A stretch of 64,000 nt of DNA from Candidatus Omnitrophota bacterium (GTDB lineage: Bacteria > Omnitrophota > Gorgyraeia > Zapsychrales > JANLHA01): NCBI GenBank assembly GCA_020632555.1, contig JACKFI010000001.1:133152-197151 (forward strand), in the 5' to 3' direction. Positions 5,622 to 38,804 of the stretch are shown here, piece by piece. The position numbers and the translations under genes are program-made. Position 1 is the stretch's first letter. Every line of letters starts with the position of its first letter. Under the pieces are notes generated by a model. It was not told the origin of the DNA and searched no databases. It saw only the letters and a list, made by a program, of their open reading frames with translations.

Positions 5622-5658
5622 ACCGTCCTCTGAATGTTAACCGGAAAGTTTCATCAAA

Positions 5659-7635
5659 CTAAGCTTGTTGAACACTAAAAATATGTGCTGGCATTTTATA
5701 AGGATTTAACTCAACAAAATTCCATTCTCCCTGCCAGCTGTACTCATCACTGGTCAACAAATCCACGACCTTATAAGATTGATCATAGGCAAAACCCCAC
5801 TGCCCTAAAGGCAACTTGACTGTACCAGCCTGCGTATTGGCGCTATCCAAATTGACAATGACCAAAATAATATTTTTCGAATCATCAGTCTTTTTATAAT
5901 ACGCAATCAGATTATCATTATTCACATCGCAAAATTTCACATTCCATGTTGTTTGCAAAGCTGGATTTCGTTTACGAATACGATTGATGCGCGTCATAAT
6001 ATCTTTAAGATTTTGCGGCTCATTCCAATTCCACTGTTTGATTTCATACTTTTCCGAATCAAAATACTCTTCTTTGCCGGCCACCGGAGTATTAACACAA
6101 AGCTCATAAGCCGGTCCATAAAGACCATAATTCGACGATAATGTCGCCGCTAAAATCAATCGGCTGATAAAAGCCGGACGGCCGCCAGTTTGCAAATGAT
6201 ACGGTAAAATATCTGGAGTATTTGGCCAAAAATTCGGCCGAAAATATTCCCGAGATTCCGTTTGCGTCAATTCGGTCATATATTCAATAAGTTCCGCCTT
6301 ACTGACCCGCCAGGTAAAATATGTATAGGATTGATGAAACCCTACTTTTCCTAATTGCTTCATAATATTCGGACGAGTAAAGGCTTCGGCGAGAAAAACA
6401 ACTTCCGGATGGTTCTTATGCGTTTCTCCAATCATCCATTGCCAAAAAGCAAATGGCTTGGTGTGCGGATTATCCACCCGAAAAATCGTAATCCCCTGGT
6501 CAATCCAAAAATCCACAATACTTTTTAACTCTTGCCATAATTCGAATGAATTCGAACAATAAAAATTGACCGGATACACATCTTCATATTTTTTAGGAGG
6601 ATTTTCGGCATATTGAATCGTGCCATCCGGCCTTTGGTAAAACCATTCGGGATGCTCTTTAACATAAGGATGATCCGGCGAACATTGATAAGCAATATCA
6701 ATCGAAACTTCTAAACCCAGCGAATTGGCTTTTTTGATAAAGCGATGAAAATCATCCATCGTTCCCAAACGAGCGTCAATAGCTTTATGGCCGCCCCCCT
6801 GACCTCCAATAGCCCAGGGACTGCCCGGATCATTGGGCCCGCCGACACGCGCATTATTCTTTCCCTTACGATGCGTTGTCCCGATCGGATGAATCGGCGG
6901 CAAATAAATCACATCAAATCCCATGCGCGCGATTTCCGGTAAAATGGCTTCACAATCTTTAAACGTTCCATGTTTCCCATTCTTGCCAAAGGAACGCGGA
7001 AAAAACTCATACCAACTGCTTAATAAAGCTTTGGGACTGTTGACCTGAACTTTTAAAACTTTGTCATAACAGACATATGAGGCCGTATCTGGTGTTGCTT
7101 GAGTTAAACTCAACAGCTGGGCACTCAATAGCAATGTCTGTTTCTGATTGGAATTGGAAGCCTTTTGTATTTCCTCCAGCAAAGATTTAATACGCTCAAC
7201 CTCTTTACCCTTTTCTTGTTCAACAATATGTTTTAAATAATTGATCCCGATCAGGATATCAACCGTGACATCTTGGCCGGCTTCAATCCGCTTTTTAAAA
7301 TCTTTTTGCCAGGTTTCAAAATGATTAACCCAGGCCTCAATGCAATATTCATGATCAGATTGTTCCGTAATCACAAAATCCGCCCGCCAACGATCATTGC
7401 CCAAACTCGTCATGGGCAATTTCTTCCAAGCTTTTTCTCCCAACTTCCTGTATAAAAGCACCGCGTTGACACTGTCATGCCCTTCGGTATAGATATCCGC
7501 CATTACCGCAACCTGCTCCTGCGGCACACGTTTAATAGGAAACACGCCCCCATCAATCTCAGGCGCAAGATGCTCAATAATCACGCGTTGAAAAGTATGT
7601 TTTGCGTTCGCCGTCTTTAACTGTGTCATAAACAC
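5659..7635 (-). CDS. glgE: alpha-1,4-glucan:maltose-1-phosphate maltosyltransferase GlgE
   Basis: 658 aa. N-terminal FPIKRV domain. GFDVIYLPPIHPIG, GSPWAIG, IFRVDNPHTKP, FLAEAFTRP. Sits at the head of the treS-glgB operon. Confidence 0.9.
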   Translation of the reverse strand: MFMTQLKTANAKHTFQRVIIEHLAPEIDGGVFPIKRVPQEQVAVMADIYTEGHDSVNAVLLYRKLGEKAWKKLPMTSLGNDRWRADFVITEQSDHEYCIEAWVNHFETWQKDFKKRIEAGQDVTVDILIGINYLKHIVEQEKGKEVERIKSLLEEIQKASNSNQKQTLLLSAQLLSLTQATPDTASYVCYDKVLKVQVNSPKALLSSWYEFFPRSFGKNGKHGTFKDCEAILPEIARMGFDVIYLPPIHPIGTTHRKGKNNARVGGPNDPGSPWAIGGQGGGHKAIDARLGTMDDFHRFIKKANSLGLEVSIDIAYQCSPDHPYVKEHPEWFYQRPDGTIQYAENPPKKYEDVYPVNFYCSNSFELWQELKSIVDFWIDQGITIFRVDNPHTKPFAFWQWMIGETHKNHPEVVFLAEAFTRPNIMKQLGKVGFHQSYTYFTWRVSKAELIEYMTELTQTESREYFRPNFWPNTPDILPYHLQTGGRPAFISRLILAATLSSNYGLYGPAYELCVNTPVAGKEEYFDSEKYEIKQWNWNEPQNLKDIMTRINRIRKRNPALQTTWNVKFCDVNNDNLIAYYKKTDDSKNIILVIVNLDSANTQAGTVKLPLGQWGFAYDQSYKVVDLLTSDEYSWQGEWNFVELNPYKMPAHIFSVQQA

Positions 7636-7671
7636 CTACTTTCTCTAAAGTTAAAACATCGGTGCATTATA

Positions 7672-8268
7672 CTATGCTTGAATCCCACGCAGGAAAATTT
7701 CCCACAAAACTTCGGCTTTATTTAATGGAAATACAGTGTAATTCGTCAAAGAGTACAAAATAATACATGTTTGAATCAGTCCAAAAAAAGCCAAACTCGC
7801 GACTTCCAAATCCGTCTCTGGACGCACTTCTTTCTGTTGCCGAGCTTGCTCAAGAATACTTCTGATCTTAAGCTGATAGCGCCGCACAACATCAAGAACT
7901 TTCTTGGTCAATACCTTATCTTTAAAATGAATCGACTCAGAAGTGATCGCAAAAAAAATGCCTTTTTTACGCTCCGAAAGAAATAAATGCGCCTTCATAA
8001 TTTCTTTGAGCTGCTCGATCGGATCAACAGTTGAAGCAATGGATTGGGCCACGCCATCACTTAAAGTTCCTTCAAAATCTTCAATCAAAGCACCTAAAAT
8101 CGCTCGTTTATTATCAAAATGCCGATACAAAGCCGGCTCAGAAATCTTCATTTTTGAAGAGAGATTCTTCATCGTCAAAGCTTTGATGCCTTGATGAATA
8201 ATCAAATCCCGAGCGGTGTCGATGATTTCTCTCTTGCGAATATCTGTGGGTTTTTTTGTCATAGTCAT
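7672..8268 (-). CDS. TetR/AcrR family transcriptional regulator
   Basis: 198 aa. N-terminal HTH ALTMKNLSSKMKISEPALYRHFDNKRAIL followed by an all-helical ligand-domain-sized C-terminus. Confidence 0.8.
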   Translation of the reverse strand: MTMTKKPTDIRKREIIDTARDLIIHQGIKALTMKNLSSKMKISEPALYRHFDNKRAILGALIEDFEGTLSDGVAQSIASTVDPIEQLKEIMKAHLFLSERKKGIFFAITSESIHFKDKVLTKKVLDVVRRYQLKIRSILEQARQQKEVRPETDLEVASLAFFGLIQTCIILYSLTNYTVFPLNKAEVLWEIFLRGIQA

Positions 8269-25256: not shown

Positions 25257-25497
25257 GCTTGTGAAATTTCCTAAAGTTTTAATCACTTTTCCCCTAATTC
25301 TACGTTGACTTGTGCAACATGACAAGTGAATTTACGAGCCTGAAAACATCCCTTGATCATTCTTTTCTCATGACTATTAATAGTGGTTTTATTGTCAAAA
25401 GGCGGGATAGAACTATCTTCGATAGGTTCAGGTTATGAAAGGTCTAGCCTGATTCCCAACCTGTTTAATAACAATATGTTGCGTGATGGTCAAAAAA

Positions 25498-25515
25498 ATG
25501 TGCCAGATTTGTGCC
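25498..25515 (-). promoter_or_regulatory. sigma54-promoter-like motif, copy 1
   Basis: Minus strand reads ATAGGCACAAATCTGGCACATTT (GGCAC-N5-TGGCA, compared with consensus TGGCAC-N5-TTGCA). About 240 nt upstream of the PAS-LuxR start and 40 nt downstream of the fic stop. Confidence 0.4.
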
Positions 25516-25556
25516 TATCCTAAAGAGCTACTTTTTTTGATGATAAGCCGACCTGA

Positions 25557-26690
25557 TTAAGTGTCCTTCAATGCGTAACTTGTGCTGCGCCCACCCGCGG
25601 TTTCTTTTACTAAAATACCCTTTTCAACAAGATCGAGAATATCGCGCAACGCCGTGTCCTGTGAACACTGGGTGATCTTCGCCCATTTAGAAGAAGTGAG
25701 CTTGCCTTCAAAACCATCAAACAACTTATTGATGATCATCTTCTGCCTCTCGTTAAGGGATTGGGCAGGATGAGATTCCCAAAAACGCGCTTTCTTAAAT
25801 ACACCCGACAAAGTATTTTCAGTTGCATCCAACGCCCGACCCAAACAGCTCAGGAACCACACAAGCCATGGCGTAATATCAATGCCGTCTTTTGTGGCAC
25901 GGTTACTTTTCTGTGTTTTTTCAAGAATATCATAATAGGCATTCCGTTCCTGCCGGATCTGATTCGACATGCTGTAAAAACGCTCCCGGCTGCCGTCGGC
26001 ACGTGCCAGTTGCATATCGGCAATAGCCCGGGCAATTCTTCCGTTACCATCATCAAAAGGATGAAGTGTCACAAACCACAAATGCCCAATACCAGCTTTG
26101 AGCACAGGATCTAAATCCTTTGTGAGCGAAATCGAAGTGTTAAACCATTTCAGAAATTCCTTCATTTCACTTTTAAGACGGTTGGCCTGCGGTGCTTTAT
26201 AATGAACCTTCTCCCGGCCGATAGGACCAGACACAACTCTCATGGGACCATGCTTATCGTCGCGCCAATCAGCCACTGTAATTTTATGCATTCCGCTTCT
26301 ACCGGTTGGGAATAAACTGGCATGCCAGCCAAACATTCGATCCTGCGTAAGGGGCTTGTCAAATTTCTGTGTGGCATCGAGCATCATTTCCACCACTCCA
26401 TCCACATGACGATCAGAAGGCACAAGTCCACCGATGTCCATGCCCAGCCTGCGTGCAATGGATGACCGCACTTTGGCAGGGTCAAGAATCTCACCTTCAA
26501 TTTCACTACTTTTTAAAACATCAAGGGTGAGAGTCTGCAGGATTGCCTCGGAACGCAAAGAAAAACCCAATGCTTCCATTCTTCCAATCAGTCGCCCTTG
26601 GCGATTGCGGACAGTCCCCAAGATAGACGCGACCTTTTCGTGATCCCATGTCAATTTAGGCCAAATGGTTAATTCATGAATGTATTTCAT
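25557..26690 (-). CDS. Fic/DOC family protein (AMPylase-type) with N-terminal DUF4172-like region and C-terminal winged helix
   Basis: 377 aa. Fido motif HPFDDGNGRIARA. N-terminal WPKLTWDHEKV. C-terminal ..ALRDILDLVEKGILVK. Confidence 0.9.
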   Translation of the reverse strand: MKYIHELTIWPKLTWDHEKVASILGTVRNRQGRLIGRMEALGFSLRSEAILQTLTLDVLKSSEIEGEILDPAKVRSSIARRLGMDIGGLVPSDRHVDGVVEMMLDATQKFDKPLTQDRMFGWHASLFPTGRSGMHKITVADWRDDKHGPMRVVSGPIGREKVHYKAPQANRLKSEMKEFLKWFNTSISLTKDLDPVLKAGIGHLWFVTLHPFDDGNGRIARAIADMQLARADGSRERFYSMSNQIRQERNAYYDILEKTQKSNRATKDGIDITPWLVWFLSCLGRALDATENTLSGVFKKARFWESHPAQSLNERQKMIINKLFDGFEGKLTSSKWAKITQCSQDTALRDILDLVEKGILVKETAGGRSTSYALKDT

Positions 26691-26721
26691 GGCAAATTCC
26701 TGCGGTGAATAGTCTCATTAT

Positions 26722-26765
26722 TCTACGCATACTATGCGGAGAATATACCATGTTTTCTCCGCATA
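26722..26765. promoter_or_regulatory. Candidate operator upstream of fic
   Basis: Palindrome TCTACGCATA-c-TATGCGGAGA (26722-26742) plus a third half-site TCTCCGCATA (26756-26765), 30-75 nt upstream of the fic ATG. Confidence 0.35.
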
Positions 26766-26877
26766 CACAAGAGAGATTTAAATCTATATTGCTCCCTACT
26801 AAAAGAAAGCGTCATTGGATATAACGGCTATGTCCAATCATATCCAATTATTGAATCTTTCCATGAGATTTGAAACG

Positions 26878-26895
26878 ATGTGCCGGATTCCTGCC
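26878..26895 (-). promoter_or_regulatory. sigma54-promoter-like motif, degenerate copy 4, fused to an 18-nt palindrome
   Basis: Minus strand reads GTAGGCAGGAATCCGGCACATCG (3 differences from the 18-nt core). About 190 nt upstream of fic. Overlaps CCTGCCTACCGGCAGGCA (26890-26907). Confidence 0.25.
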
Positions 26896-26918
26896 TACCG
26901 GCAGGCAGGTGTGCCAAG

Positions 26919-27866
26919 TTATAATCGATCTGAATATTGTGAGATTGTACTTAAAATTTCATCAAACGATATTTGCCCCTGATAATACAATGTTGCAGTT
27001 TTTAGGCACTCCTTCTTAAATTGATCTCTTATCTTCGTATCTTTCAGCAAAAAAGCCTCCTGCTTTGCAATAGGAAACTTTTGATCTGCGACGGGAAATC
27101 TCTTCTTCTTATGCTCGTTGTATTCTGAAGTCCCGATAAACTTCTGAACCGTATCGTTTTGCAAAAGGCAAGCAACATCGTAATAATGCCGGATAAAATT
27201 AGCAGGCATCTTTCCGGACTCTTGCAGTTTCCGAAACTTTGTTGCGATTGTTTGCAATTTCTCAACAAACGTATAACCCAGATGATAGCACAAAACACCA
27301 CCAGCTCTATTATCCTTAACCTTGAGTCCATTCTGCAATGCAAAATCAAGCGCCCAAGAGCTAATATCCATCGGGCTGTTGGGCGTCACCTCATCAAACC
27401 CAACTTCGAGCAATACACCCTCTTTTATGCCGCCGGCAACAGAGAAAGCACTTTTGTAAAAAAGCCGTATTCCACCGCTAAAGAATTTTTCATTATCAAA
27501 TTCCGTGTCACGAATAATTCTTTGTATCCCATCAATATTAATTTTCTTCGCCAACCAGTCATAGTATTTCTTACGGCTTGCACAATGATCTGGTTTTATA
27601 TGGTTTGGACCTGTCTTGACTTCCATGCCGGCAGGCGGTTCGATACGAATATCAATGTCCTCAGAAAATCGATGAATAATGCCATACCCTTTTGAGAGCG
27701 ACGTACCTCCTTTGAGCTCGAAGGTAAATCCCCCTTGTTGCAAACCATATAAAACATGCATGATCCAATAATCTTTTTCAACCAGACTACGCTCTATCTT
27801 TTTTTCATGCTCTACAGCTCGCAAGAGTTCTTTAAATTCAGCGTGGTTATGTAAATAATCAGACAT
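26919..27866 (-). CDS. AbiEii/AbiGii nucleotidyltransferase toxin (type IV TA, DUF1814)
   Basis: 315 aa. LKGGTSLSKGYGIIHRFSEDIDI nucleotidyltransferase motif. 8-nt overlap with the upstream antitoxin-like gene. Confidence 0.85.
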   Translation of the reverse strand: MSDYLHNHAEFKELLRAVEHEKKIERSLVEKDYWIMHVLYGLQQGGFTFELKGGTSLSKGYGIIHRFSEDIDIRIEPPAGMEVKTGPNHIKPDHCASRKKYYDWLAKKINIDGIQRIIRDTEFDNEKFFSGGIRLFYKSAFSVAGGIKEGVLLEVGFDEVTPNSPMDISSWALDFALQNGLKVKDNRAGGVLCYHLGYTFVEKLQTIATKFRKLQESGKMPANFIRHYYDVACLLQNDTVQKFIGTSEYNEHKKKRFPVADQKFPIAKQEAFLLKDTKIRDQFKKECLKTATLYYQGQISFDEILSTISQYSDRL

Positions 27867-28452
27867 GTGCTAAGTTTCCCTCTAACATCCATTGATTAAA
27901 TAAAGTTTTTGTTCTTTCTCCTGCATAAACATTGACCGCGCGCTTCATCTGAGATTCTGGTTCTTTCAGCACTTTTTCCTTAACACTTCGCAAAACACTT
28001 TCCCGATCTTCCGCTAACTCATTTAAATTGTTCAGTAAATCAACCAGTAGAAATTCTTCGGACAATTCTCTGGGGAATTTATGCTTTAATCGAAAATCAA
28101 ACTCCTTTCCACCAAGAACGAATTGACCATGCCGTTTATGATTATAAACAAAGCGCGTATTGTACAACTGCGTAGTTCCCACTCCTAAAGAATTGTAAAG
28201 GTTAGGCGAGGTTAAAAGAAAATCATCGCTTTTTAAGAAGGCCCGTACCAATTTTTCGTCTTCCGGTGGCACAGAGCCAAACGAGGCTTTTGCAGGATAA
28301 TAGTACAATCCCTGTGACATTTTTTGCAAGGTCCCCTCATCAACCAGTTGCTTTAAATGCCGATCAACCGCGGTTGACCATTGCTCCAGATCAACCCTGC
28401 GATAAACCTGTCCCGGTTTTAAATGCCTTTTAAGTTCGCTAAGCGCGTCCAC
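27859..28452 (-). CDS. AbiEi-family antitoxin-like protein (wHTH)
   Basis: 197 aa. N-terminal wHTH-like HLKQLVDEGTLQKMSQGLYYYP. Positioned directly upstream of AbiEii and overlapping it. Confidence 0.65.
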   Translation of the reverse strand: MDALSELKRHLKPGQVYRRVDLEQWSTAVDRHLKQLVDEGTLQKMSQGLYYYPAKASFGSVPPEDEKLVRAFLKSDDFLLTSPNLYNSLGVGTTQLYNTRFVYNHKRHGQFVLGGKEFDFRLKHKFPRELSEEFLLVDLLNNLNELAEDRESVLRSVKEKVLKEPESQMKRAVNVYAGERTKTLFNQWMLEGNLAHV

Positions 28453-28568
28453 GTCTTCTGCCTCCTACTTACCTCAAGTATAAAGAGTTTTCTCTAAGAA
28501 TGCAACAATATTAATTTAAAATTCATGCAAATAAAGTGGAAGGACGCACCCAAGATGCTGATATAAAT

Positions 28569-29918
28569 CTAATTGTGATGATTAGCCATCATCCAATCAA
28601 GCACCCCTTTAACACGACGCCAGACAGTAGCCATCTCATGGGCATAATACCGAGCCTCATCCTCTCCGCCCATAGATAAATAATCAGGAATCGCCTTCAA
28701 ACGGAAACCTTTGACAAGATAATTAGGAATAAATTTATTTGTTTTAAAAGCGCGCGCCATCATTTCCCTTGATTGCAACGAATCACCTTCTTTAATAAAC
28801 CACACCAACGCCCTCGTGTAGCACCATGGCGCGGAGCAATCATTCGCATACGGCCCATCCTCCATGAATTGTTCAAGTTCCGCAAATTTCGATCTCTTTG
28901 CCAGATAGCCTGCAAGAACATAGCGCATTCCCTGATTGTCATTCTCATTCAAACACAGCATATCGCGACACACCTCAATCGCTTCGGCATGCTTACCAAG
29001 CTCCCATAAAATTTCCTGAAGTCCAGCCAAAGCGCGCATATACGGCCTTGATTCCAGCAAAGCCCAAAATTGTCCGGCATTCTCTATAAAAAATTTTTGC
29101 CCTAATGCTTCTTTGCCAACCCTAACCCCTTGTAAAAAGTAGGTTGCGGCTTCGTCAAGATACTCTGCTGAATCACCTAAAACAACGTAGGCATCCGTGC
29201 AATTCGGATCAAGATTTAAAGCTTTTTGAGCCAAACCAACACGCTCATCAGAATCAGCCCGCTCCCATGCTTCATAAATCAACTCTTGAGCGATACGTGC
29301 AGGCGACGCATCTGCGAGCTCAGAGGCGGCTTCACCCAATTCTCTTCTTAAGTAAGTCTTCAAATCTTCCTCTTTTGGAATACCCCAAAGAATATTTCTA
29401 AGATCTGGTGGGACCTTGTAACCGTAAAGTGCCGAAAACGTCTCGATCGGAAACCCGTATTTCAGCGCTCCCATGGGCATGCCATTCAATTGAGCGGCTA
29501 CGACGGCCGCAGGATCCTCGTCCTTCTTAGCTTTACTCAGCCACCAGCGGGAATTTAAGACCATCTGGTTCATGGAGGCAAGCACACTGCGATCATTGGC
29601 TTTATCGACGACAATCTCGTCACAGCCTTGCAAAACTTTCTGCATCATTTCACTTGGACAATGCGTATGAAACATAGCACGCGAAAGCCCTTTGTAAAAA
29701 AGTTCACGAAGGTTTTTGAGATCCTTTTTCTTCACTCCCGCGACAAGGAAAGAAAACAGCGTCGATCGATGAGTAAAAAGCAGCTGCTTCTTGTGCTCAT
29801 GATAAAATAAATTCACGAACCATTCTGAAACAGATGGACTATCAGTGTTCAAAGATAAAGACTGAGGCTTGATACCGCTAAACAATAAAAACTTTTGTGT
29901 CCCACGTAAAAGAATCAT
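28569..29918 (-). CDS. Hypothetical protein with C-terminal TPR-like helical repeats
   Basis: 449-aa ORF, coherent with no internal stops. C-terminal half is helical-repeat-like (AQELIYEAWERADSDERVGLAQKALNLDPNCTDAYVVLG). No function assignable. Confidence 0.55.
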   Translation of the reverse strand: MILLRGTQKFLLFSGIKPQSLSLNTDSPSVSEWFVNLFYHEHKKQLLFTHRSTLFSFLVAGVKKKDLKNLRELFYKGLSRAMFHTHCPSEMMQKVLQGCDEIVVDKANDRSVLASMNQMVLNSRWWLSKAKKDEDPAAVVAAQLNGMPMGALKYGFPIETFSALYGYKVPPDLRNILWGIPKEEDLKTYLRRELGEAASELADASPARIAQELIYEAWERADSDERVGLAQKALNLDPNCTDAYVVLGDSAEYLDEAATYFLQGVRVGKEALGQKFFIENAGQFWALLESRPYMRALAGLQEILWELGKHAEAIEVCRDMLCLNENDNQGMRYVLAGYLAKRSKFAELEQFMEDGPYANDCSAPWCYTRALVWFIKEGDSLQSREMMARAFKTNKFIPNYLVKGFRLKAIPDYLSMGGEDEARYYAHEMATVWRRVKGVLDWMMANHHN

Positions 29919-29994
29919 TTTTTAATAACCTAACGTTGTTAAATCACCTACAAGCGCCCTCGTTTTGTCATACACTGCGTAATGGTCAATAAAA

Positions 29995-30012
29995 ATGTGC
30001 CAGATTTGTGCC
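29995..30012 (-). promoter_or_regulatory. sigma54-promoter-like motif, copy 2
   Basis: Minus strand reads TGTGGCACAAATCTGGCACATTT (TGGCAC-N5-TGGCA). 77 nt upstream of the 449-aa ORF start. It shares a further ~17 nt (TTGACCATYACGCA) with copy 1. Confidence 0.45.
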
Positions 30013-30017
30013 ACATG

Positions 30018-30443
30018 CTATATGAGTTTTTCCATTTTTTCTATAGCAGCATAGTAAATACTCAAAAACTTATCTTTTATTGTAAAAAGCTCGTCCATCA
30101 TTTTTTCAGAATGGGACTTATTCTCATATTCAAAAGGATAAAACCGAATACCCTTTTTATAAAATCCGCCTTCATAATTAATTTGAAAAAAATAATCTCG
30201 GTCAACAAGAGATCGATGCTTACTCAAGTTACAAAAACTCCTCACGTAGCCAAACTCATCTGAGTCAATCCATTCTCCTATAGCATTCTCTAAATCCGGA
30301 GCGATACCTTTCAATTGTTTACTCACTTTATAAATTGTAACTTTGCTTCGGGGCAGCGTAGAAGATAGGATTACCATATTGATTACCTGTGCGCAAATAT
30401 CAGGAGCCAAAGAGAATATTTCCAAACGTGCCATATTCAGCAC
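30018..30443 (-). CDS. Hypothetical protein
   Basis: 141-aa ORF beginning 103 nt downstream of rtcA on the same strand. No recognisable motif. Confidence 0.4.
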   Translation of the reverse strand: MLNMARLEIFSLAPDICAQVINMVILSSTLPRSKVTIYKVSKQLKGIAPDLENAIGEWIDSDEFGYVRSFCNLSKHRSLVDRDYFFQINYEGGFYKKGIRFYPFEYENKSHSEKMMDELFTIKDKFLSIYYAAIEKMEKLI

Positions 30444-30546
30444 AAACCTGCCGAAGGACGAGCAAGTCCGCCAGAAGCAAATGAACCCGACACTCCTGGA
30501 AATGTTCTCTTTTACTCTCTTTTGAGTTTCTTTAGAATTTTATTTT

Positions 30547-31560
30547 TCATATTGAAACGTGGCATTGCCCATTGCCAAGATCAACAAAATTAATTTTAAC
30601 ATCCATGAACTTCTCAATAATCTCGGCATTGGTAAGGCTGTGCAGCGTCAGGGCCGTAGTTTTAAATTCTCCACCTTTGGCCAAAGCAAACGGGATCAAA
30701 AGCTGATCAGCCAAATACGTCCCCACCGGAGCATCGATTTGTAAATATTTCTTTACTTGTTCAATGGCTTCATGCGCTACTGCTTCCGCGCTTTTACGCA
30801 ATTCTCCGAAACCCACAAACATTTCCCTGATATTTTCACTATCAACCTCAACCGTAAAAATATTTCCCGGACCTTGAGAATCCATGGCTTGAAAAATCTC
30901 ACTTTGATCATCTTCCAGAGAAAAATGTTTTTTAGCGACCGCGATTTCTCTGACAGCAACATTGCCAGGGATTTGGGCAAAGAGTGATCTTGCCTTTATG
31001 CCTTTAAGTTTGCCGCGCTCTAACAAAAATATGGGTTTTAATTTCTTTATAGGCACAATTTTAGCTTCGATCTTTCCGCCGCCGGCCGGGTAAAAACCGT
31101 GGCGATGCAAAGTCACTTCTAAATCCACACCCATTTGTTTGAGAATCGGCGCAAAAACTATTTTTAAAAAATCCACCGGGGGTGCGAAAGGATTATGCGT
31201 TCCTCCTTCGATCACAATTATGGATGGTGAGTCCGCGATCATCAAAGCCGGTAAAATGGTTTGCAAAACAAGAGTCGCGCTACCCGCCGTCCCAACTGAA
31301 AAATGGTATTCCCCTGCGGTGACTTCTCCCGGATAGAAAGTCAGCTTTTGCGAGCCGATAACATTCCCATCGACCTTTGCATCTCCAATCTTCGTAGCTG
31401 CTTCGACAGCCGTTAAATGCTGGCGTAAAAGCCCCGGCTTACTACGCTTAGCGCGGATATTCTCAATCGTAAACGGCTCGCCCGTTACTAAGGACAACCC
31501 GAGAGCTGTCCTTAGTATTTGGCCCCCGCCTTCACCGATTGAACCGTCGATTTTAATCAT
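30547..31560 (-). CDS. rtcA: RNA 3'-terminal phosphate cyclase RtcA
   Basis: 337 aa. MIKIDGSIGEGGGQILRTALGLSLVTGEPFTIENIRAKRSKPGLLRQHL, HRHGFYPAGGG, YLADQLLIPFALA. ATGA overlap with the upstream SPFH gene. Confidence 0.92.
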   Translation of the reverse strand: MIKIDGSIGEGGGQILRTALGLSLVTGEPFTIENIRAKRSKPGLLRQHLTAVEAATKIGDAKVDGNVIGSQKLTFYPGEVTAGEYHFSVGTAGSATLVLQTILPALMIADSPSIIVIEGGTHNPFAPPVDFLKIVFAPILKQMGVDLEVTLHRHGFYPAGGGKIEAKIVPIKKLKPIFLLERGKLKGIKARSLFAQIPGNVAVREIAVAKKHFSLEDDQSEIFQAMDSQGPGNIFTVEVDSENIREMFVGFGELRKSAEAVAHEAIEQVKKYLQIDAPVGTYLADQLLIPFALAKGGEFKTTALTLHSLTNAEIIEKFMDVKINFVDLGNGQCHVSI

Positions 31561-32306
31561 TTGACCTCTTTGGTTCTCACCGGAACGACTTGACCCGATA
31601 CTCCTAAGACAATCGTACTTCCCGGTGATTGTAAAGCTCGCAATTGCAATAACGCAGGATTGTCTTCCAACACTTTAGAAACATTGGCCAAATTGCGCAA
31701 AGACGCGGTTTCTCCGCGGGCACGTTCCAATGCCGCCAACCCTTCTTTTTGCGCCTCAACAACCTTAGCAAAGATTTTCTTTAATTCACCCGGAAACATA
31801 ACGTCCTTAACGCCGATGAGCGTAATTTTTAAACCGATTTCCTTCGCTTTGGCAACCGTCGCTTCCATCAACTTTTGATTAATCGTTGCTCGCTGTGCCA
31901 AAACCTCATCGATCGCTAAAGAGCCAATGATGTCACGAACTGCCAATTGTACCACCGCGTATAAAGCCTCGGTGTAACTAGCGATCTTATTAACGGCGAT
32001 GTTGGCATCTTCGATCTCATATTGCGCCGTAATGCTGACCTTTAAGGACACATTGTCCGAACTTAAGACTTCCTGCCCCGGGATCGTGATGACTCGAGGA
32101 CGAACATCGATCTTAACGATGATCGTATTCTGAGAAAACTTAAAATAACGACCCGGTTCCAAAATTCCGACAAATTTTCCCTTGCGATATTTTAAACCCT
32201 TCTCATATTCAAGAATAGTGACAAAATATTTTGCACTAAAAACCGCAATGACGACCCAACCGATAAAGCCGAGCACCGCCATGCTTACTAATGTTGATAA
32301 TGTCAT
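31557..32306 (-). CDS. SPFH/band-7 (stomatin/slipin-like) membrane protein
   Basis: 249 aa. N-terminal TM helix. SPFH core VDVRPRVITIPGQEVLSSDNVSLKVSITAQYEI, then a coiled AKVVEAQKEGLAALERARGETA segment. Confidence 0.85.
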   Translation of the reverse strand: MTLSTLVSMAVLGFIGWVVIAVFSAKYFVTILEYEKGLKYRKGKFVGILEPGRYFKFSQNTIIVKIDVRPRVITIPGQEVLSSDNVSLKVSITAQYEIEDANIAVNKIASYTEALYAVVQLAVRDIIGSLAIDEVLAQRATINQKLMEATVAKAKEIGLKITLIGVKDVMFPGELKKIFAKVVEAQKEGLAALERARGETASLRNLANVSKVLEDNPALLQLRALQSPGSTIVLGVSGQVVPVRTKEVK

Positions 32307-32602
32307 TTCTTTCTCCTTTTGTTTTTAAAAGTTCTGTCTTAAAAAAATTGTAGAATCGCAGTGGAGGTTGTTGACCTGCAAGACGGCTTTTCTACGAGCA
32401 ACTTTCTTAAGACAGAACGTGGGGATTTGAACCCCTCGGATTACTCCTTGACCAGGGCGAGCGTTTATCTGCAAAATGATATGGCCGATGCCATGTCATC
32501 GCACTGGATTCGCTCGCATATTTTTTTATCCCAATTTTTGCTAAAGGATTTTGCTTTTGGTAAATTGGGATTACGCAAATTTTTTCTATCGAAAATCTGC
32601 CT
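32307..32602 (-). ncRNA. Structured non-coding spacer between rtcB and the SPFH gene, with a tRNA T-arm-like motif (candidate ncRNA or tRNA remnant)
   Basis: No ORF. On the minus strand: 10-bp hairpin ATCCCAATTT/AAATTGGGAT (32528-32571); 7-bp stem GCGAGCG/CGCTCGC (32457-32517); exact T-arm GGGGTTCAAATCCCC (rc of 32421-32435); 12-bp stem GTTCTGTCTTAA/TTAAGACAGAAC (32331-32342 with 32407-32418) followed by TTTT. Confidence 0.35.
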
Positions 32603-34120
32603 TTAAGCTGCTCCTTTTAAACTTTTATCTTCATCTTTAATAACAAACCGCGCTTTTAACTTTGCCACAGGACTCGCCAGCCCGGCGCTCTCGATTGATC
32701 TCAAAACTTCTTTGAAATCTTTATAAGCCGCAGGGGCTTCATCCAAAGGATATTGCCGGCAATTAGACAGAATGTCATTGTCTTTGAAACTCTGGTCGAC
32801 TTCCTGTTGGACCAAAGTTCTCATCGCCGCCTTCCGTCCCAACGCACGACCAGCGCCGTGATTAACGCTGTAACAACTTTTTTCTGCGCCCGGATCAGCA
32901 ACCATAACAACCGAGCCATCTTTAGGATTACCCGGAAGCAAAATCGGATGTCCGGTATCAGCAAACAAAGTGTCCTTTAATGCAAAGTGTCCCGCCGGGA
33001 AAGCCCGCGTCGCCCCTTTGCGGTGGACCCAGACTTTTTGATTGTCCACCACTTCCTGCCGGGCAATGTTATGGCTGATAAAATAAACCAACTGCCCTTT
33101 TGTTCCAGGAACCACCTCTTGAAACGCTTCTAAAACCAAAGCATTGATTAACAGATGATTGATCGTCGCAAAATTAGCGCCCAAGGCCATGTCATTCAAG
33201 TAGGCATCTGCTTCGGGCGTTCCCAAGGGCGCATACACCAACTCCTTATCCTCGCCCGGCAATGGAATATCCCAAACCGAGAATTTATTTTGCAAGGTCT
33301 TGAATTGATGCTGCGCTAAATGATAACCAAAACCGCGCGAACCGCAATGCGAGAGAAAGGCTACCTTGTTATCTTGAAGCCCAAAGACTTCGGCCACCTT
33401 CTTGGCGCGCTCATCATTCTCGATTTCAACAACTTCGCATTCTCCAAAGTGATTTCCACCACCATAAGAACCCAATTGCGAAATCTTTTTCTCAAAATTA
33501 TCGAACAATCCCGTATCGATCAAAAATTGCAATCTTTGACCTAAGGCATCGGCTGTTCCATCATGCCCGACGTGAAAAGCATCTTCGCAACGCAAAGCCC
33601 AATCCACAGGAATGCCTAATTGCTCGCAGACCGAAGCCGAAGCACCCTGGATAGCGACTTGTTTACCCAGGATTTCATTGACCCGTCTCGCCTTCTTAAC
33701 TGAACGCTGCCCCTGCCCCGCACCCGTCGGGGTTCTTTCAAGGATCGCGTTAATTAAAGCCCGACGGGTGCTTTGATCAATGACGGCATTTGCCGGCAAA
33801 TCCATTTGCAATAAACTCATCGAACACTTAATGTCCACACCAACCGGACCAGGATATATATGAGTAGGTGACACCAGAACACAACCAACCGGTGCGCCGT
33901 ACCCGCAGTGAGCATCTGGGTTCAATACTAAATCGGTAACCCCGGGAGCGCCGCGAGAATTTAAAGCTTGTTGAATACAAAGGTCATCAAAAGTTTTTCT
34001 GATCGCCTCGGTTCCAATCACCGTGATTGGTTTTCCTTCACTATTATGCATAGGAAGAAAACCCGTTGCTTCCCCGGTGGCATGAATTCTTGAAGTTGAT
34101 TCGTTCGTTTGTTCTGACAT
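32603..34120 (-). CDS. rtcB: RNA 3'-phosphate ligase RtcB
   Basis: 505 aa. DAHCGYG, HCGSRGFGYHLAQH, ISHNIARQE, VHRKGATRAFP, NHGAGR. Confidence 0.95.
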   Translation of the reverse strand: MSEQTNESTSRIHATGEATGFLPMHNSEGKPITVIGTEAIRKTFDDLCIQQALNSRGAPGVTDLVLNPDAHCGYGAPVGCVLVSPTHIYPGPVGVDIKCSMSLLQMDLPANAVIDQSTRRALINAILERTPTGAGQGQRSVKKARRVNEILGKQVAIQGASASVCEQLGIPVDWALRCEDAFHVGHDGTADALGQRLQFLIDTGLFDNFEKKISQLGSYGGGNHFGECEVVEIENDERAKKVAEVFGLQDNKVAFLSHCGSRGFGYHLAQHQFKTLQNKFSVWDIPLPGEDKELVYAPLGTPEADAYLNDMALGANFATINHLLINALVLEAFQEVVPGTKGQLVYFISHNIARQEVVDNQKVWVHRKGATRAFPAGHFALKDTLFADTGHPILLPGNPKDGSVVMVADPGAEKSCYSVNHGAGRALGRKAAMRTLVQQEVDQSFKDNDILSNCRQYPLDEAPAAYKDFKEVLRSIESAGLASPVAKLKARFVIKDEDKSLKGAA

Positions 34121-34163
34121 TTGTTTTTCCCTTATATTGCCCCTTTCCTTTATCGTTGCTTAA

Positions 34164-34192
34164 AGCATACCCTATCCAAAGCCAAATGTCAA
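34164..34192 (-). promoter_or_regulatory. sigma70-type promoter candidate for rtcB
   Basis: Minus strand reads TTGACA (rc of 34187-34192), a 17-nt spacer, then TATGCT (rc of 34164-34169), about 45 nt upstream of the rtcB ATG. Confidence 0.4.
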
Positions 34193-34243
34193 ATTTATTT
34201 TTATTTTCTTGTATAAATGTTTATCCTGTGATATATTTATACC

Positions 34244-35842
34244 ATGAATACAAAAATTGCTATTGGGCTACTTGGGACAACCCTCGATCAAGGGAAAGAT
34301 GAAAATCGCTGGAACAAGTGGCGTCCGACCATCTCCCTTTTTCAGCACGAAGACCTCTTGATCCATCGTTTTGACTTGCTATACGAAAAAAAATTTCAAG
34401 ATCTTGCCGAGCAAGTTATTTCTGACATCAAATCCATCTCCCCTGAAACCAGAGTTGTGCCCCACATTATTGAAGTGAAAGACGCGTGGGATTTTGAGAA
34501 TATGTACAGCGTCCTTTTTGACTTTGCCCGCAATTATCCTTTTAATATAGAGAAAGAAGAATATCTCATCCACATCACCACCGGATCGCACGTAGCGCAA
34601 ATTTGTGAATTTCTTTTAACTGAAAGCCGATACTTCCCAGCTAAACTCATCCAGACCTCCCCTTCCAAAACCGAAGGCTTTAAAGGCGAATACCGCATCA
34701 TTGATCTTGACCTTTCTAAGTACGACAACATCGTCAAGCGATTCCGTAAAGAACAAAGAGAAAATTTATCATTTCTTAAATCCGGGATAGCGACTCGCAA
34801 TAGTAAATATAATCGGCTCATTGAACAAATCGAACGCGCGACGATCAACTCTAATGCCCCGCTTCTTCTCACCGGCCCGACCGGTGCCGGAAAATCACAT
34901 CTTGCCCGACAAATTTTTGAACTCAAAAAGATTCACAACCAAATCAAAGGCCAATTTATCGAAGTCAACTGCGCGACTCTGCGCGGAGAAATGTCGGCCT
35001 CCACCCTTTTTGGGCATGTCAAAGGAGCATTTAACTGCGCCATCAAAGACCGAATGGGATTATTACGCGAAGCCAATGAAGGGGTTTTATTTCTCGACGA
35101 GATTGGAGAATTAGGGATCGATGAGCAAGCCATGCTTCTTAAAGCATTGGAAGAACAAAAATTCTTGCCCATCGGCAGCGACGAGGAAGTTGAAAGTAAA
35201 TTTCAGTTAATTGCCGGGACGAATTTAGACCTTGGCATTGAAGTTGATAAAGGCAATTTTCGCACCGACCTCTACTCCCGAATCAATCTTTGGACATTCT
35301 CATTGCCTTCTCTTAAGGACCGTCCTGAAGATATCGATGCCAACATTGAATTTGAATTAGAAAAGTTTTCACAAACACACAATATCAACGCCACCATCAA
35401 TAAAGAAGCCAAAGATGCCTATTTGAAATTTGCGACATCAGAGAAAGCATTATGGAAAGCGAACTTCCGTGACTTGAATGCCTCCATCATTCGCATGACC
35501 ACATTAGCCGACGGCGGGAGAATCAATATTGAACTTGTGCAGGAAGAAATTGACCGGTTAAATAAACTTTGGAAGAGAAGCGAAGATACTCAAGAAGCGG
35601 AGATACTCGAACGTTTACTAACTCAAGAACAACTGCAAAAGCTAGACCGGATTGAAAAAATCCAATTGATTGAAGTTATAAAGATTTGCCGCGAATCACG
35701 CAACCTGTCTGAAGCCGGCCGCATTTTATACAATGCTTCCCGCACACTCAAATCAAGCACCAATGACGCCGATCGACTTAAAAAACTTCTCGCCCGCCAC
35801 GATCTATCCTGGGACCAAATTAAAAACGCTTCCGTACTATGA
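34244..35842 (+). CDS. rtcR: RtcR: CARF-domain / AAA+ bacterial-enhancer-binding-type regulator of the rtc operon
   Basis: 532 aa, divergent from rtcB. N-terminal ~185 aa RtcR-type CARF region. Walker A LLTGPTGAGKSHLA. LFLDEIGELGIDEQAMLLKALEE. C-terminal HTH. The L1 loop reads GAFNCA (35024-35041) instead of GAFTGA. Confidence 0.9.
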   Translation: MNTKIAIGLLGTTLDQGKDENRWNKWRPTISLFQHEDLLIHRFDLLYEKKFQDLAEQVISDIKSISPETRVVPHIIEVKDAWDFENMYSVLFDFARNYPFNIEKEEYLIHITTGSHVAQICEFLLTESRYFPAKLIQTSPSKTEGFKGEYRIIDLDLSKYDNIVKRFRKEQRENLSFLKSGIATRNSKYNRLIEQIERATINSNAPLLLTGPTGAGKSHLARQIFELKKIHNQIKGQFIEVNCATLRGEMSASTLFGHVKGAFNCAIKDRMGLLREANEGVLFLDEIGELGIDEQAMLLKALEEQKFLPIGSDEEVESKFQLIAGTNLDLGIEVDKGNFRTDLYSRINLWTFSLPSLKDRPEDIDANIEFELEKFSQTHNINATINKEAKDAYLKFATSEKALWKANFRDLNASIIRMTTLADGGRINIELVQEEIDRLNKLWKRSEDTQEAEILERLLTQEQLQKLDRIEKIQLIEVIKICRESRNLSEAGRILYNASRTLKSSTNDADRLKKLLARHDLSWDQIKNASVL

Positions 35843-35934
35843 TCAATCCCTAATTTAATCATCCGTGATAGTTTATTTGAGAATTTATTGTAACCCCAAG
35901 AAGTGGCGTCAGGGGGGATTTTTGGTGCCAAAAC

Positions 35935-35952
35935 ATGTGCCAGATTTGTGCC
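35935..35952 (-). promoter_or_regulatory. sigma54-promoter-like motif, copy 3
   Basis: Minus strand reads TATGGCACAAATCTGGCACATGTT. Lies 25 nt downstream of the HEPN gene and points antisense into the 3' end of rtcR. No downstream minus-strand gene. Confidence 0.35.
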
Positions 35953-35976
35953 ATAGCAAAATGCCATCTTTTTGTA

Positions 35977-36384
35977 TCACTTTCCCATCATCTCTCTGAC
36001 CCATTGATAAACCCGGGTAGTCACCTTGACCATTTCATCAGCATCGGCTCGATTAACACTACGGCATTCATACTGGATCACATTCTTTCGGGCAATGATT
36101 TTGCGTAATTGCTTGGCTTTTTCAGCAGCGCCATCAATCGGCAATTTTGAAACCAGCTCACAGACATCCAAGTGATCTTGGGAAATTGACCGAACACCTT
36201 TTTCATTCACACAAATCGCATCCGCCGAAGAAATCGCACATTGCAATGCCAACGTTGCCGCGGCGTTCCAATTCTCAGCATGAAAAGCAATGAGCATTTG
36301 ATCGTAATTGTCCGATGCCTTTTTCAGATATTCACTAGCGGCAGATTTGCTCTCTTCTCTCACCTTCATTTCACGCGCTGTCAC
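35977..36384 (-). CDS. HEPN-domain protein (HepT-like toxin of a HEPN/MNT module)
   Basis: 135 aa, all-helical. Rx4-6H-type motif RSISQDH. Lies immediately downstream (1-nt gap) of the MNT gene. Confidence 0.7.
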   Translation of the reverse strand: MTAREMKVREESKSAASEYLKKASDNYDQMLIAFHAENWNAAATLALQCAISSADAICVNEKGVRSISQDHLDVCELVSKLPIDGAAEKAKQLRKIIARKNVIQYECRSVNRADADEMVKVTTRVYQWVREMMGK

Positions 36385-36385
36385 A

Positions 36386-37015
36386 TCACACCTCCAAAGG
36401 TTCTTTTCCGTATAAAACTGAATAGGATTTCATTAATGTTGATATCGGCGGAAGATTCTTTTTAAGACGTTCACGAAATTCAGCCGCTGACTTTACATAA
36501 AAATCCAAATGAATACCAAAATATGACTTAAACCGATCCGCAATGCTTGAATTAAAAACCTCCGCAACCTGCTTCGTATGGCTTGCCTTATCGACAACAA
36601 CGGCCACATCAACATCGCTTTTTTTATTTGCTGTACCTTGCTGAACACTTCCATAAAGGATCAAAGAAACAATATCCGTCTTGATCCCGCCTTTCTTTAT
36701 CTCCTCCAAGAGCAGATCGCGGATCTCTCCCTTATAATTACTCTCCGCCTCGAACATCGGGCGAATAATTTTTTGAACGATGCGGTCCTCTTCATTCAAA
36801 GAATAGATATGCTGTTTTCCGATGACTTCGACATTAAGAATATTGTGTGCCTGAAGATTCTTTAATGATTCGTGGGTAGCAGGCACAGAAAAACCAGACA
36901 ATTTAGCAATCTCGCGGCCCGTGGCTCTTAATCCTTTACGGATAGTCAGAACACGCAGGATGGCCACCGCTGACTGCGTCCCAACAATTTCACTGATTTG
37001 GAAAGGAGAATCCAT
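36386..37015 (-). CDS. Minimal nucleotidyltransferase (MntA-like antitoxin) with N-terminal winged-helix domain
   Basis: 209 aa. N-terminal wHTH (GREIAKLSGFSVPATHESLKNLQAHNIL). NTase motif LILYGSVQQGTANKKSDVDVAVVV. Confidence 0.8.
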   Translation of the reverse strand: MDSPFQISEIVGTQSAVAILRVLTIRKGLRATGREIAKLSGFSVPATHESLKNLQAHNILNVEVIGKQHIYSLNEEDRIVQKIIRPMFEAESNYKGEIRDLLLEEIKKGGIKTDIVSLILYGSVQQGTANKKSDVDVAVVVDKASHTKQVAEVFNSSIADRFKSYFGIHLDFYVKSAAEFRERLKKNLPPISTLMKSYSVLYGKEPLEV

Positions 37016-37020
37016 AAACT

Positions 37021-37058
37021 TTACCTAACATATGTAAGGTTAACCTAACACGTAAAGT
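37021..37058. promoter_or_regulatory. Candidate operator upstream of the MNT/HEPN pair
   Basis: TTACCTAACATATGTAAGGTTAACCTAACACGTAAAGT: imperfect palindrome CCTAACAT/ATGTAAGG plus a repeated ACCTAACA, starting 6 nt upstream of the MNT start codon. Confidence 0.3.
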
Positions 37059-37346
37059 ATAACATTGTTTCCAGAACTGTCAAATTTATACTGCTCCACG
37101 GTGATATACCGTATTGTGTGTAAATTAACTGTCATCCCCGAAATTTTTTATCGGGGAACCATTTAAAAGTAGTAAAAAAAGGCGTATCTTTCTGTTTGGA
37201 AATGTTTAACCGGGTTGACCCATGTCAGCCCAGAACAGAAAGGATACGCCCATGTACCAAACATTTGATACTTTAAAACATCGCGGAGCCGGGTCAAGGA
37301 TTTCATTAATTATACCCAACCGAAAGATTTTTGGATCGATATTAAT

Positions 37347-38471
37347 ATGCATCTTAGAAAACTAACCAAAAGTTTTATTGAAGAAACTCTCGACGAAGAA
37401 ATGACCCAATATCAACAACGAGAAAAACATCAGCGGTTAAAGAAAATGATCGATTACCGAAACGGACATTATCAACGCAACCTCGATACGACCATCGGCC
37501 CTCTTGATAATATTGCCGTTCCGCGTTCACGAAGCGGACTATTTAAACCTACGGTTTTTAAGCGTTACCAAAGACGCCAAGAAGCTGTTAACACCGTCAT
37601 CTGCAATGCCTTCCTGCGCGGCATATCCACCCGTGAAGTCGCTGGCGCTTTAAAACCAATCCTTGACACCAACATCTCCGCTTCCGCCGTCTCACGAATA
37701 ACAAAATCTTTAAATGCCCAAGTTAAAGCATTCCATCAACGTCAACTGCTCGACGAATATCAGTTTTTATTCCTAGACGGTATTGCTATCTCAGTCAAAG
37801 GAGCGCTTAAAGCCAAGAAAATTCTTGTCCTAACTGCTTATGGCATTACGATCTTCGGTAAAAAAGAGCTCATCGCCTTTAGAATCTCTAACAGCGAGTC
37901 AAATCAAGCCTGCGAAGGATTTTTAAATGATCTATTTAAACGCGGCCTGCAAGGCAAAAACCTTAAATTGATTATCACCGACGGGTCCAAAGGCTTTATT
38001 AACGCCGTCGACCTCGTTTACCCTCACGTCAAACATCAGCGCTGCTGGGTTCATAAACTTCGTAATTGCACTAAACATCTTAAGAAATGCGATATTGATG
38101 CATTTAAAAATGATGCCCGCAAGATTTACAATGCCTCGACTCATCGAGATGCTGTCGCGGCTTTTAAGAGTTTACGCCAACATTGGGTCAAAGATTATCC
38201 GCAAGTTGTCAAACTCATCGAACAGGATTTAGATAGTCTTTTGGCTTTTTTAGAAATTCCAATCAAGGAACAATACCGCGAATTTATCCGTCGTCGAATT
38301 CGTACAACCAACATCATCGAGCGTTCATTCCGGGAAATCAGACGCCGCACCAGACCCATGGGATGTTTTGCAAATATTGATAGCGTCAGCAGGATTATTT
38401 ATGCGATATTTAATCGCTTAAACACCAAATGGCAGGAGAAACCTTTAACCCAATTTACACAATTTATTTGA
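37347..38471 (+). mobile_element. IS256-family (mutator-type) transposase gene; IS ends not delimited
   Basis: 374 aa. FLFLDGIAISVK, IITDGSKGFINAVDLVYPHVKHQRCWVHKLRN, TTNIIERSFREIRRR (DDE region). N-terminus somewhat short for the family. I could not identify convincing terminal inverted repeats. Confidence 0.8.
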
Positions 38472-38549
38472 CATTACCGCAAATTGAAAGGTGCGGTTAA
38501 AACAAGAAAACCCCGTCTCTCCTCGACGGAAAACAGGGTTTTATATTGG

Positions 38550-38563
38550 TTGCGGGGACAGGA
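38550..38563 (-). repeat. 14-nt duplicate of the tRNA-fMet 3' end
   Basis: TTGCGGGGACAGGA is identical to 38731-38744 (discriminator, 3' acceptor strand and start of the T stem), 181 bp from the intact gene. It runs directly into the palindrome CCTGCCTACCGGCAGGCA (38564-38581). Confidence 0.6.
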
Positions 38564-38695
38564 CCTGCCTACCGGCAGGCAAGTTTGAATGGTTTCGCGG
38601 CTTCGCTTACGCTCAACCATTTCCTCGCCTAACGGCTCGGTCACCTGCGCTCGCTTTCGCTCGCTGCACGTCCATTCACCCATCCCACTAATAAA

Positions 38696-38725
38696 TTAAG
38701 AAGGCCCCAATTGGGGCCTTCTTAA
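38696..38725 (-). terminator. Rho-independent terminator downstream of tRNA-fMet
   Basis: Perfect 30-nt palindrome TTAAGAAGGCCCCAATTGGGGCCTTCTTAA, 6 nt after the tRNA 3' end, followed on the minus strand by TTTATT. Confidence 0.7.
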
Positions 38726-38730
38726 TTTAA

Positions 38731-38804
<74 letters not shown>

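Follow-up and report, generated by a model that had tools for sequence, protein, structure and literature searches.

We describe an unusual regulatory arrangement in a 64,000-nucleotide stretch of a Candidatus Omnitrophota genome (assembly GCA_020632555.1, contig JACKFI010000001.1, positions 133,152 to 197,151; hereafter the window, numbered from its first letter), where the regulator gene rtcR lies divergent from an RNA-repair operon encoding rtcB and rtcA. In this lineage of uncultured Omnitrophota, RtcR has lost the threonine with which bacterial enhancer-binding proteins (bEBPs) contact sigma-54, and the operon promoter is predicted to be of the housekeeping type—a combination suggesting that an enhancer-binding protein has been rewired in nature. 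The reading that we favor, with a probability of about 0.6, is that the rtc operon changed over from sigma-54 to sigma-70 in this lineage specifically and that RtcR would have been kept as a regulator with its CARF, AAA+, and helix-turn-helix (HTH) parts. To our knowledge, the dependence of RtcR on sigma-54 has been taken as strict until now, and our literature search found no report of a sigma-54-independent RtcR.

The rtcR gene (34244..35842, plus strand) encodes a 532-residue protein composed, according to Pfam, of a CARF-like RtcR N-terminal domain (PF06956, 2.3e-80, residues 4-181), an AAA+ domain of the sigma-54-interaction type (PF00158, 3.7e-47, residues 184-350), and a C-terminal HTH region. 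Domain content, full-length homology—E. coli K-12 RtcR aligns end to end at 54% identity—and gene context all place the protein in the RtcR family, and it is identical to GenBank MCB9756950.1, from a Candidatus Omnitrophota metagenome-assembled genome (MAG). Its AAA+ ATPase motifs appear intact: Walker A (GPTGAGKS, residues 211-218; 34874..34897, plus) and Walker B (LFLDE, residues 282-286; 35087..35101, plus), as well as both arginine-finger positions (FRTDLYSRI) and sensor II (NFRDL), align with the E. coli RtcR residues. The L1 loop, which lies within GHVKGAFNCAIKD, is encoded at 35024..35041 on the plus strand by the codons GGA GCA TTT AAC TGC GCC and reads GAFNCA (G261-A266), with Asn264 in place of the sigma-54-contacting Thr and Cys265 in place of the second Gly. 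A preliminary description of this DNA had reported this loop and given GAFTGA for E. coli RtcR; the first is confirmed by the codons and by the same protein on an independent contig, and the second by the E. coli K-12 sequence.

The functional weight of the two positions is known from other bEBPs. In PspF, Phe85 and Thr86 of the GAFTGA motif contact sigma-54 region I; the T86A mutant keeps its ATPase activity and does not engage the closed complex, and T86S alters binding to one of two region I fragments (PMC3467059, PMC4132715). Likewise, NifA is inactivated by a Thr-to-Pro change, and among the natural variants from D. vulgaris, those considered functional have Thr or Ser (PMC4641369). More latitude exists at the second Gly—NorR G266C is active, and NtrC G219C can form open complexes (PMC2941729).

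The Asn residue is fixed in a small clade of related MAGs, made up of the window's 90%-identity cluster and one further protein (P0002), whose nine distinct RtcR sequences are 88-97% identical to the window protein and all carry it. The loop and the residues following it read GAFNGA-TKDR in seven of these sequences; GAFNCA-IKDR is found in the window sequence and one identical fragment only. The next relatives, at 73, 70, 66, and 63% identity, have GAFTGA or GSFTGA. Within the clade, three loci encode the Asn by AAC and two by AAT, with synonymous variation at nearly every neighboring codon. Pairwise Nei-Gojobori estimates of the ratio of nonsynonymous to synonymous substitution (dN/dS) are 0.014-0.047 for the whole gene, or about 0.03, and 0.012-0.044 for the AAA+ domain, with dS ranging from 0.34 to saturation; the C-terminal DNA-binding region, at 0.04-0.09, is also under purifying selection. 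The identical protein encoded on an independent Logan contig (L004), the AAC/AAT variation, the low dN/dS, and the aligned motifs together indicate a functional gene that has long preserved its Asn. A sequencing or assembly error, or decay of rtcR into a pseudogene, would have only the rarity of the motif in its favor, and we consider it vanishingly improbable: the open frame is intact, the same protein was recovered in an independent assembly, Asn recurs in nine distinct sequences, and dN/dS is about 0.03, so this explanation was ruled out. The Gly-to-Cys change, for its part, is recent, private to the window's sublineage, and probably the less important of the two, since the equivalent substitutions in NorR (G266C) and NtrC (G219C) preserve function. 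A metagenome scan added no further members of the Asn clade, and a scan of genomes returned two MAGs, labeled Planctomycetales and Omnitrophota.

How rare this residue is can be judged from the L1 loops of 270 RtcR homologues, comprising the 120 closest to the window protein and 150 representatives of 50%-identity clusters. Thr, within G[AS][FY]TGA, is present in 117 of the 120 best homologues, the others being one GAFTSA and two Asn sequences that are themselves members of the clade. Among the 150 representatives, about 126 have Thr, five Ser, and one Pro, and about eight have a scrambled or deleted loop, the rest being fragments that lack the region. Thr dominates, Ser is its only recurrent replacement, and no Asn occurs at this position outside the clade in any of the 270; an alignment of this kind had been suggested in the preliminary description, and its outcome is that Asn is clade-specific and not common in sigma-54-dependent orthologues.

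The second half of the finding concerns the 123-nt spacer between rtcR and rtcB (34121-34243). On the rtcB strand it holds a predicted promoter, TTGACA-N17-TATGCT, matching 10 of 12 consensus positions, with the -35 hexamer at 34187..34192 and the -10 hexamer at 34164..34169 (both minus strand) and a predicted start site near 34157. We compared eight Asn-clade loci (window/L004, L001, L002, L005, L006, L022/L023, and L024) and found TTGACA-N17-TA(T/A)GCT in every one of them, starting 52-55 nt from the rtcR start codon, with an invariant -35 hexamer and a conserved -10 hexamer (TAAGCT in L002). Between the window and its most distant relative in the clade, L002, 11 of 12 hexamer positions are identical as against 8 of the 17 between the hexamers, the length being unchanged; conserved hexamers separated by a variable sequence of fixed length are the pattern expected of a working -35/-10 promoter. 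An A/T-rich tract lies upstream, and together with the consensus -35 and the 17-nt spacing it predicts appreciable basal activity.

By contrast with this conserved site, the -24 GG/-12 GC target promoter of a canonical bEBP is missing from the window locus. The promoter just described had already been noted in the preliminary description and is upheld at 34192-34187/34169-34164 by its retention in eight loci; a companion claim, that the spacer's only TGG..TGC element is spaced one nucleotide too short for sigma-54, holds in part. The spacing of that element, TGGATAGGGTATGC (34178-34165, minus), is indeed GG-N9-GC, one nucleotide short, but it is not the only one: a correctly spaced GG-N10-GC, GGGTATGCTTTAAGCA (34157..34172, minus), had been missed. 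This second element agrees with the consensus at 7 of 12 positions; L005, L006, L022, and L002 have lost its GC, and we judge it to be non-functional. A search for a hidden sigma-54 promoter across the approximately 700-840 nt upstream of the operon in all clade loci gave best matches of at most 7/12, none conserved, and its only -24/-12-type hit was the weak GGGTATGCTTTAAGCA, in the window and L001. Within that distance, a hidden sigma-54 promoter upstream of rtcB was rejected.

The Thr-bearing relatives present the opposite picture. Three of them (L003, L012, and L016; 73, 70, and 63% identity, with GAFTGA or GSFTGA) have TGGCAC-N5-T(T/G)GC promoters that match 11 of 12 sigma-54 consensus positions (TGGCACGCTTCTGGCT, TGGCACGGTTTTGGCT, and TGGCACACCAGTTGCT, respectively), about 142-144 nt from rtcR, and the E. 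coli K-12 rtcBA promoter, TGGCACGACGGTTGCA, matches all 12. The rtcR-rtcB spacer is also longer in the relatives, at 187-298 nt compared with 121-123 nt in the clade; the clade member L002 has 156 nt, with Ro60 remnants next to it. Because Thr is lost in the clade and -24/-12 promoters accompany Thr in its relatives, both events, disappearance of the residue and exchange of the promoter, fall on one branch.

We propose that, in the ancestor of this Omnitrophota lineage, transcription of the rtcB-(non-coding RNA)-band7-rtcA operon by sigma-54 RNA polymerase would have come to an end. The ancestral -24/-12 promoter would have been lost along with much of the rtcR-rtcB spacer, the sigma-70-type TTGACA-N17-TA(T/A)GCT would have taken its place, and in the same ancestor RtcR, no longer required to touch sigma-54, would have exchanged the Thr of L1 for Asn. 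The CARF sensor, the motifs for ATP binding and hydrolysis, and the HTH would have been retained under strong purifying selection, and RtcR would most likely bind the short divergent control region and modulate sigma-70 polymerase at rtcB, as well as at its own promoter, upon RNA damage. Since the -35 hexamer is a perfect consensus, we lean toward repression that is released by RNA damage, or modest activation of the class I type, over obligatory activation. What we observe directly is the state of each sequence, how these states go together from locus to locus, and the purifying selection; from sequence features we infer the choice of sigma factor, the continued regulation of the rtcB promoter by RtcR, and its sign. 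The idea that RtcR may regulate rtcB without sigma-54 at a sigma-70-type promoter, already put forward in the preliminary description, gains support from the fixed Asn, the retained hexamers, and the lack of a conserved -24/-12 element, and further from the strong -24/-12 promoters of E. coli and the closest Thr-bearing relatives.

On the other strand of the spacer, a predicted rtcR promoter, TTGTAT-N17-TATATT with a TGn preceding the -10 hexamer (34209..34237, plus), can be read from the sequence and is shared throughout the clade. Its end and the ATG are 6 nt apart, so that the rtcR mRNA may be leaderless. In-frame upstream extensions of rtcR are annotated in some relatives (541 aa); in the window, a stop codon blocks them. 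We also considered, as candidate RtcR operators, GATAA-N4-TTAT(C/A) palindromes lying some 60 nt ahead of the start site predicted for rtcB, comparing them with CGATA-N6-TATCG in E. coli, and rejected them, as such palindromes are not evidence in DNA so AT-rich.

Several points weigh against a switch to sigma-70. First, the L1 loop is otherwise intact and invariant in the clade (GAFNGATKDR) and the catalytic ATPase residues are conserved, which is not strictly expected if remodeling of sigma-54 had been abandoned; the loops of known sigma-70-acting bEBPs are mostly deleted or scrambled. Second, Asn could be tolerated at the Thr position, as no Thr-to-Asn test is known in any bEBP—our literature search found no report of such a GAFTGA mutant. 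Third, sigma-54 may be present in these genomes, given the perfect -24/-12-like elements (TGGCACAAATCTGGCA) near the locus; a search of the 64-kb window and the clade loci for the RpoN box, by regular expression, and for a second bEBP, with an AAA+ hidden Markov model built from the 120 homologues, found only rtcR. Finally, the bare -35/-10 pattern is not above chance, with one site against 1.4 expected in shuffles of a 600-nt region, and its weight comes from its conservation across related loci. The intact loop also admits a variant in which the clade RtcR is an evolutionary intermediate whose ATP-driven, Asn-tipped L1 acts on a partner other than sigma-54; we think this quite unlikely, and the partner could be the sigma-70 holoenzyme or another factor at the -35/-10 promoter. 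Should this variant be correct, a single Thr-to-Asn change and a promoter replacement would suffice to move a CARF-controlled AAA+ activator from sigma-54 to the housekeeping polymerase.

The elements near the locus are copies of a 19-mer, TGGCACAAATCTGGCACAT, that matches the -24/-12 sigma-54 pattern perfectly and in which TGGCACA is directly repeated. The window holds three, all on the minus strand (35953-35935, 30013-29995, and 25516-25498), with 0.04 expected by chance, and others occur in L001 (5827), L005 (1596), L006 (205, 1516, 7814, and 11332), L022 (11864), and L024 (3358). The 19-mer usually stands directly after a stop codon and is often followed by approximately 40 conserved nucleotides and an incomplete tRNA-Met (CAT), its 3' half; in L006 it borders an insertion of 1.3 kb that is absent from L005, and in L024 it falls within the 3'-terminal part of a gene for a tyrosine integrase. 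The 19-mer most probably belongs to the end (att arm) of integrative elements of tRNA-Met. As a sign of sigma-54 it is ambiguous, and the tRNA-Met halves, the insertion junction, and the integrase fit an integrative-element end better.

These repeats bear on the possibility that ATP hydrolysis by the Asn variant remains coupled to sigma-54, whose region I may have adapted with it, at a non-canonical or distant sigma-54 promoter. Under this explanation, the candidate targets would be the TGGCACAAATCTGGCACAT elements, one of which lies 111 nt downstream of rtcR, and TTGACA/TATGCT would provide basal expression only. Strict conservation of the ATPase motifs and of the remainder of L1 is consistent with such coupling, as are the three perfect -24/-12-like 19-mers within 10 kb of rtcR (0.04 expected by chance) and the resemblance of their TGGC -12 element to the real rtc promoters of L003 and L012; moreover, D. 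vulgaris bEBPs often control sigma-54-dependent non-coding RNAs beside their own genes (PMC4641369). Even so, we regard it as unlikely, because the 19-mer behaves like an integrative-element end (the partial tRNA-Met 3' halves, the insertion flanks in L006, and the integrase in L024), the copy at 35953 reads into the rtcR 3' end and has no gene after it, a conserved -24/-12 element is lacking in front of rtcB throughout the clade, and bEBPs regarded as functional show Thr or Ser only.

A different explanation accepts the sigma-70 promoter and removes RtcR from it: the operon would be constitutive or otherwise controlled, RtcR would no longer regulate rtcBA, and it would be kept for another role, such as autoregulation only or a protein-level function through binding of its CARF domain to RtcA or RtcB. 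A perfect -35 hexamer, a 17-nt spacer, and an A/T-rich upstream tract do predict a promoter independent of an activator, and direct binding of E. coli RtcA and RtcB to the RtcR CARF domain is reported (PMC9650030). In addition, the 18 differences between the window protein and its closest relative include both G265C and T267I in the L1 tip, where about 0.27 would be expected, and two such changes in the window's sublineage hint at relaxed constraint on the loop. Set against this, every clade locus preserves the divergent rtcR-rtcB layout and the portion of the spacer nearest rtcR, and the C-terminal DNA-binding region remains under purifying selection (dN/dS 0.04-0.09), which argues that DNA binding at the locus still matters. 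We find the explanation rather doubtful and continue to prefer a sigma-70 promoter that RtcR would still modulate.

Loss of the L1 loop is not confined to the Asn clade. One family representative reads GAFPGA, about 8 of the 150 have a scrambled or deleted L1, and some of the variants have also lost Walker motifs (loop-variant representatives: P0141, P0177, P0193, P0199, P0200, P0239, P0263, P0269, and P0145). Two unrelated loci with degenerate loops were inspected—L020, in which the loop reads SHLGVA and rtcB adjoins a Cas3-like gene, and L021, in which the loop is deleted and only rtcA is present—and no -24/-12 promoter was found beside rtcB or rtcA at either of them. The coupling of a degenerate L1 with an absent -24/-12 promoter thus appears to recur in the RtcR family, and loss of sigma-54 coupling may itself be recurrent.

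The operon downstream of the predicted sigma-70-type promoter begins with the RNA ligase gene rtcB (32603..34120, minus; PF01139, 4.4e-102), continues with an SPFH/Band_7 gene (31557..32306, minus; PF01145, 2.4e-30), and ends with the RNA 3'-phosphate cyclase gene rtcA (30547..31560, minus; PF01137, 2.7e-81). The divergent arrangement of rtcR and rtcB-Band_7-rtcA is the same in all clade loci; in L006, rtcB is split into two open reading frames (4362-5878). Between rtcB and the Band_7 gene lies a conserved structured non-coding RNA of about 190 nt (32310..32520, minus), built from a long terminal stem, a hairpin domain on the 5' side, and a hairpin resembling a T-arm (GGGGTTCAAATCCCC). Compensatory changes occur in 10 of its 61 predicted pairs, its conservation lies far above that of synonymous sites, and it is also present in L001, L002, L005, L006, and L012. 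An Rfam search of 29800-36100 at E <= 1 gave no match, including for this RNA.

Relatives have retained an arrangement resembling that of Salmonella, in which Ro60 (TROVE/vWA) and RNAs of the YrlA type separate rtcR from rtcB. L003 has both Ro60 and an Rfam YrlA match of 71 bits at 5874-5996; L002 has three tRNA-like repeats (5850-6300) and a Ro60 gene split into two open reading frames (6302-7844); and the window, L001, L005, and L006 have no Ro60. The RNA between rtcB and Band_7 may represent a Y-RNA-like or tRNA-like component of the rtc operon where Ro60 is missing from the genome.

More broadly, the rtc locus occupies a variable, island-like region of the window (25400-38804) in which toxin-antitoxin and mobile genes are abundant. 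These include genes for Fic (25557-26690), an AbiEii toxin (26919-27866) with a DUF6088 partner, DUF6933 (28569-29918), a HEPN protein (35977-36384) with an MNT nucleotidyltransferase (36386-37015), and an IS256/Mutator-type transposase (37347-38471), followed by a tRNA-Met on the minus strand (38731-38804). No integrase was found in the 64-kb window, and the order of the island junctions differs between the window, L005, and L022. The rtc module adjoins island junctions at tRNA-Met and, at one locus, an integrase; a possibility related to the unlikely reading of RtcR as an evolutionary intermediate is that the change of partner made the module portable into hosts that lack rpoN.

What makes this case informative is that regulator and promoter changed together in one narrow lineage whose close relatives keep the ancestral state, and that the residue change is the smallest possible—one Thr—with the remaining motor under strong selection. 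It therefore offers a natural experiment on how enhancer-binding proteins leave sigma-54, on whether the GAFTGA Thr is the decisive switch, and on the role of a CARF-gated AAA+ ATPase at a sigma-70 promoter. There is also a warning for annotation: labels such as 'sigma 54-interacting transcriptional regulator' and 'RNA repair transcriptional activator' are attached to Asn-clade proteins, and the warning extends to several other RtcR-family lineages that have lost the L1 loop altogether.

The window system can be set beside four kinds of known or related systems. The nearest in composition is the rtc system of E. coli and Salmonella, which shares the order of CARF-like RtcR domain, AAA+, and HTH, the divergence of the regulator from rtcB/rtcA, and the conserved ATPase residues; its operon (rsr-yrlBA-rtcBA) is sigma-54-dependent, and early-branching relatives likewise keep Ro60 and a YrlA-like RNA, as Salmonella does. 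Compared with E. coli RtcR and its GAFTGA, however, the clade has Asn for Thr and the window additionally Cys for the second Gly; the 188-nt spacer and -24/-12 promoter of the E. coli locus correspond to about 122 nt, a conserved -35/-10, and no -24/-12 in the window; and the window operon lacks Ro60 and contains a Band_7 gene and an unclassified structured RNA.

Laboratory mutants (PspF T86A and T86S, NifA Thr-to-Pro, NorR G266C, and NtrC G219C) are altered at the same two loop positions as the window protein. In these, replacements of Thr other than Ser abolish sigma-54 engagement and leave the ATPase intact, and Cys at the second Gly is tolerated; yet they are engineered loss-of-function alleles, whereas the Asn of the clade is naturally fixed and maintained by selection. 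The degenerate-loop RtcR proteins (for example P0141, P0177, P0199, and P0239, including some from Myxococcota) are, like the clade, full-length and without GAFTGA, but their loops are scrambled or deleted and some lack Walker motifs, whereas the clade keeps everything except the Thr.

Finally, the NtrC proteins of Rhodobacter capsulatus and Caulobacter and VpsR lack GAFTGA and are reported to act at sigma-70 promoters, as the preliminary description had stated for bEBPs of this kind; NtrX also lacks the motif, and ATP binding and hydrolysis are still predicted to be necessary for Caulobacter NtrC (bioRxiv 10.1101/2023.06.06.543975). Like the window RtcR, the sigma-70-acting proteins have the AAA+ bEBP architecture; they have lost the sigma-54-contact determinant, of which the clade lacks the Thr, and the -35/-10 target promoter that characterizes them is present, at the sequence level, in eight loci of the clade. 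They differ in that their L1 is deleted or unrecognizable, while in the clade one residue differs and the rest of the loop is conserved, and in their sensor, which is a receiver domain where RtcR has CARF. GAFTGA-less bEBPs such as NtrC and VpsR are already known, and the CARF-gated RtcR of the clade, with its nearly whole loop, would by its sequence work most like these sigma-70-acting bEBP derivatives.

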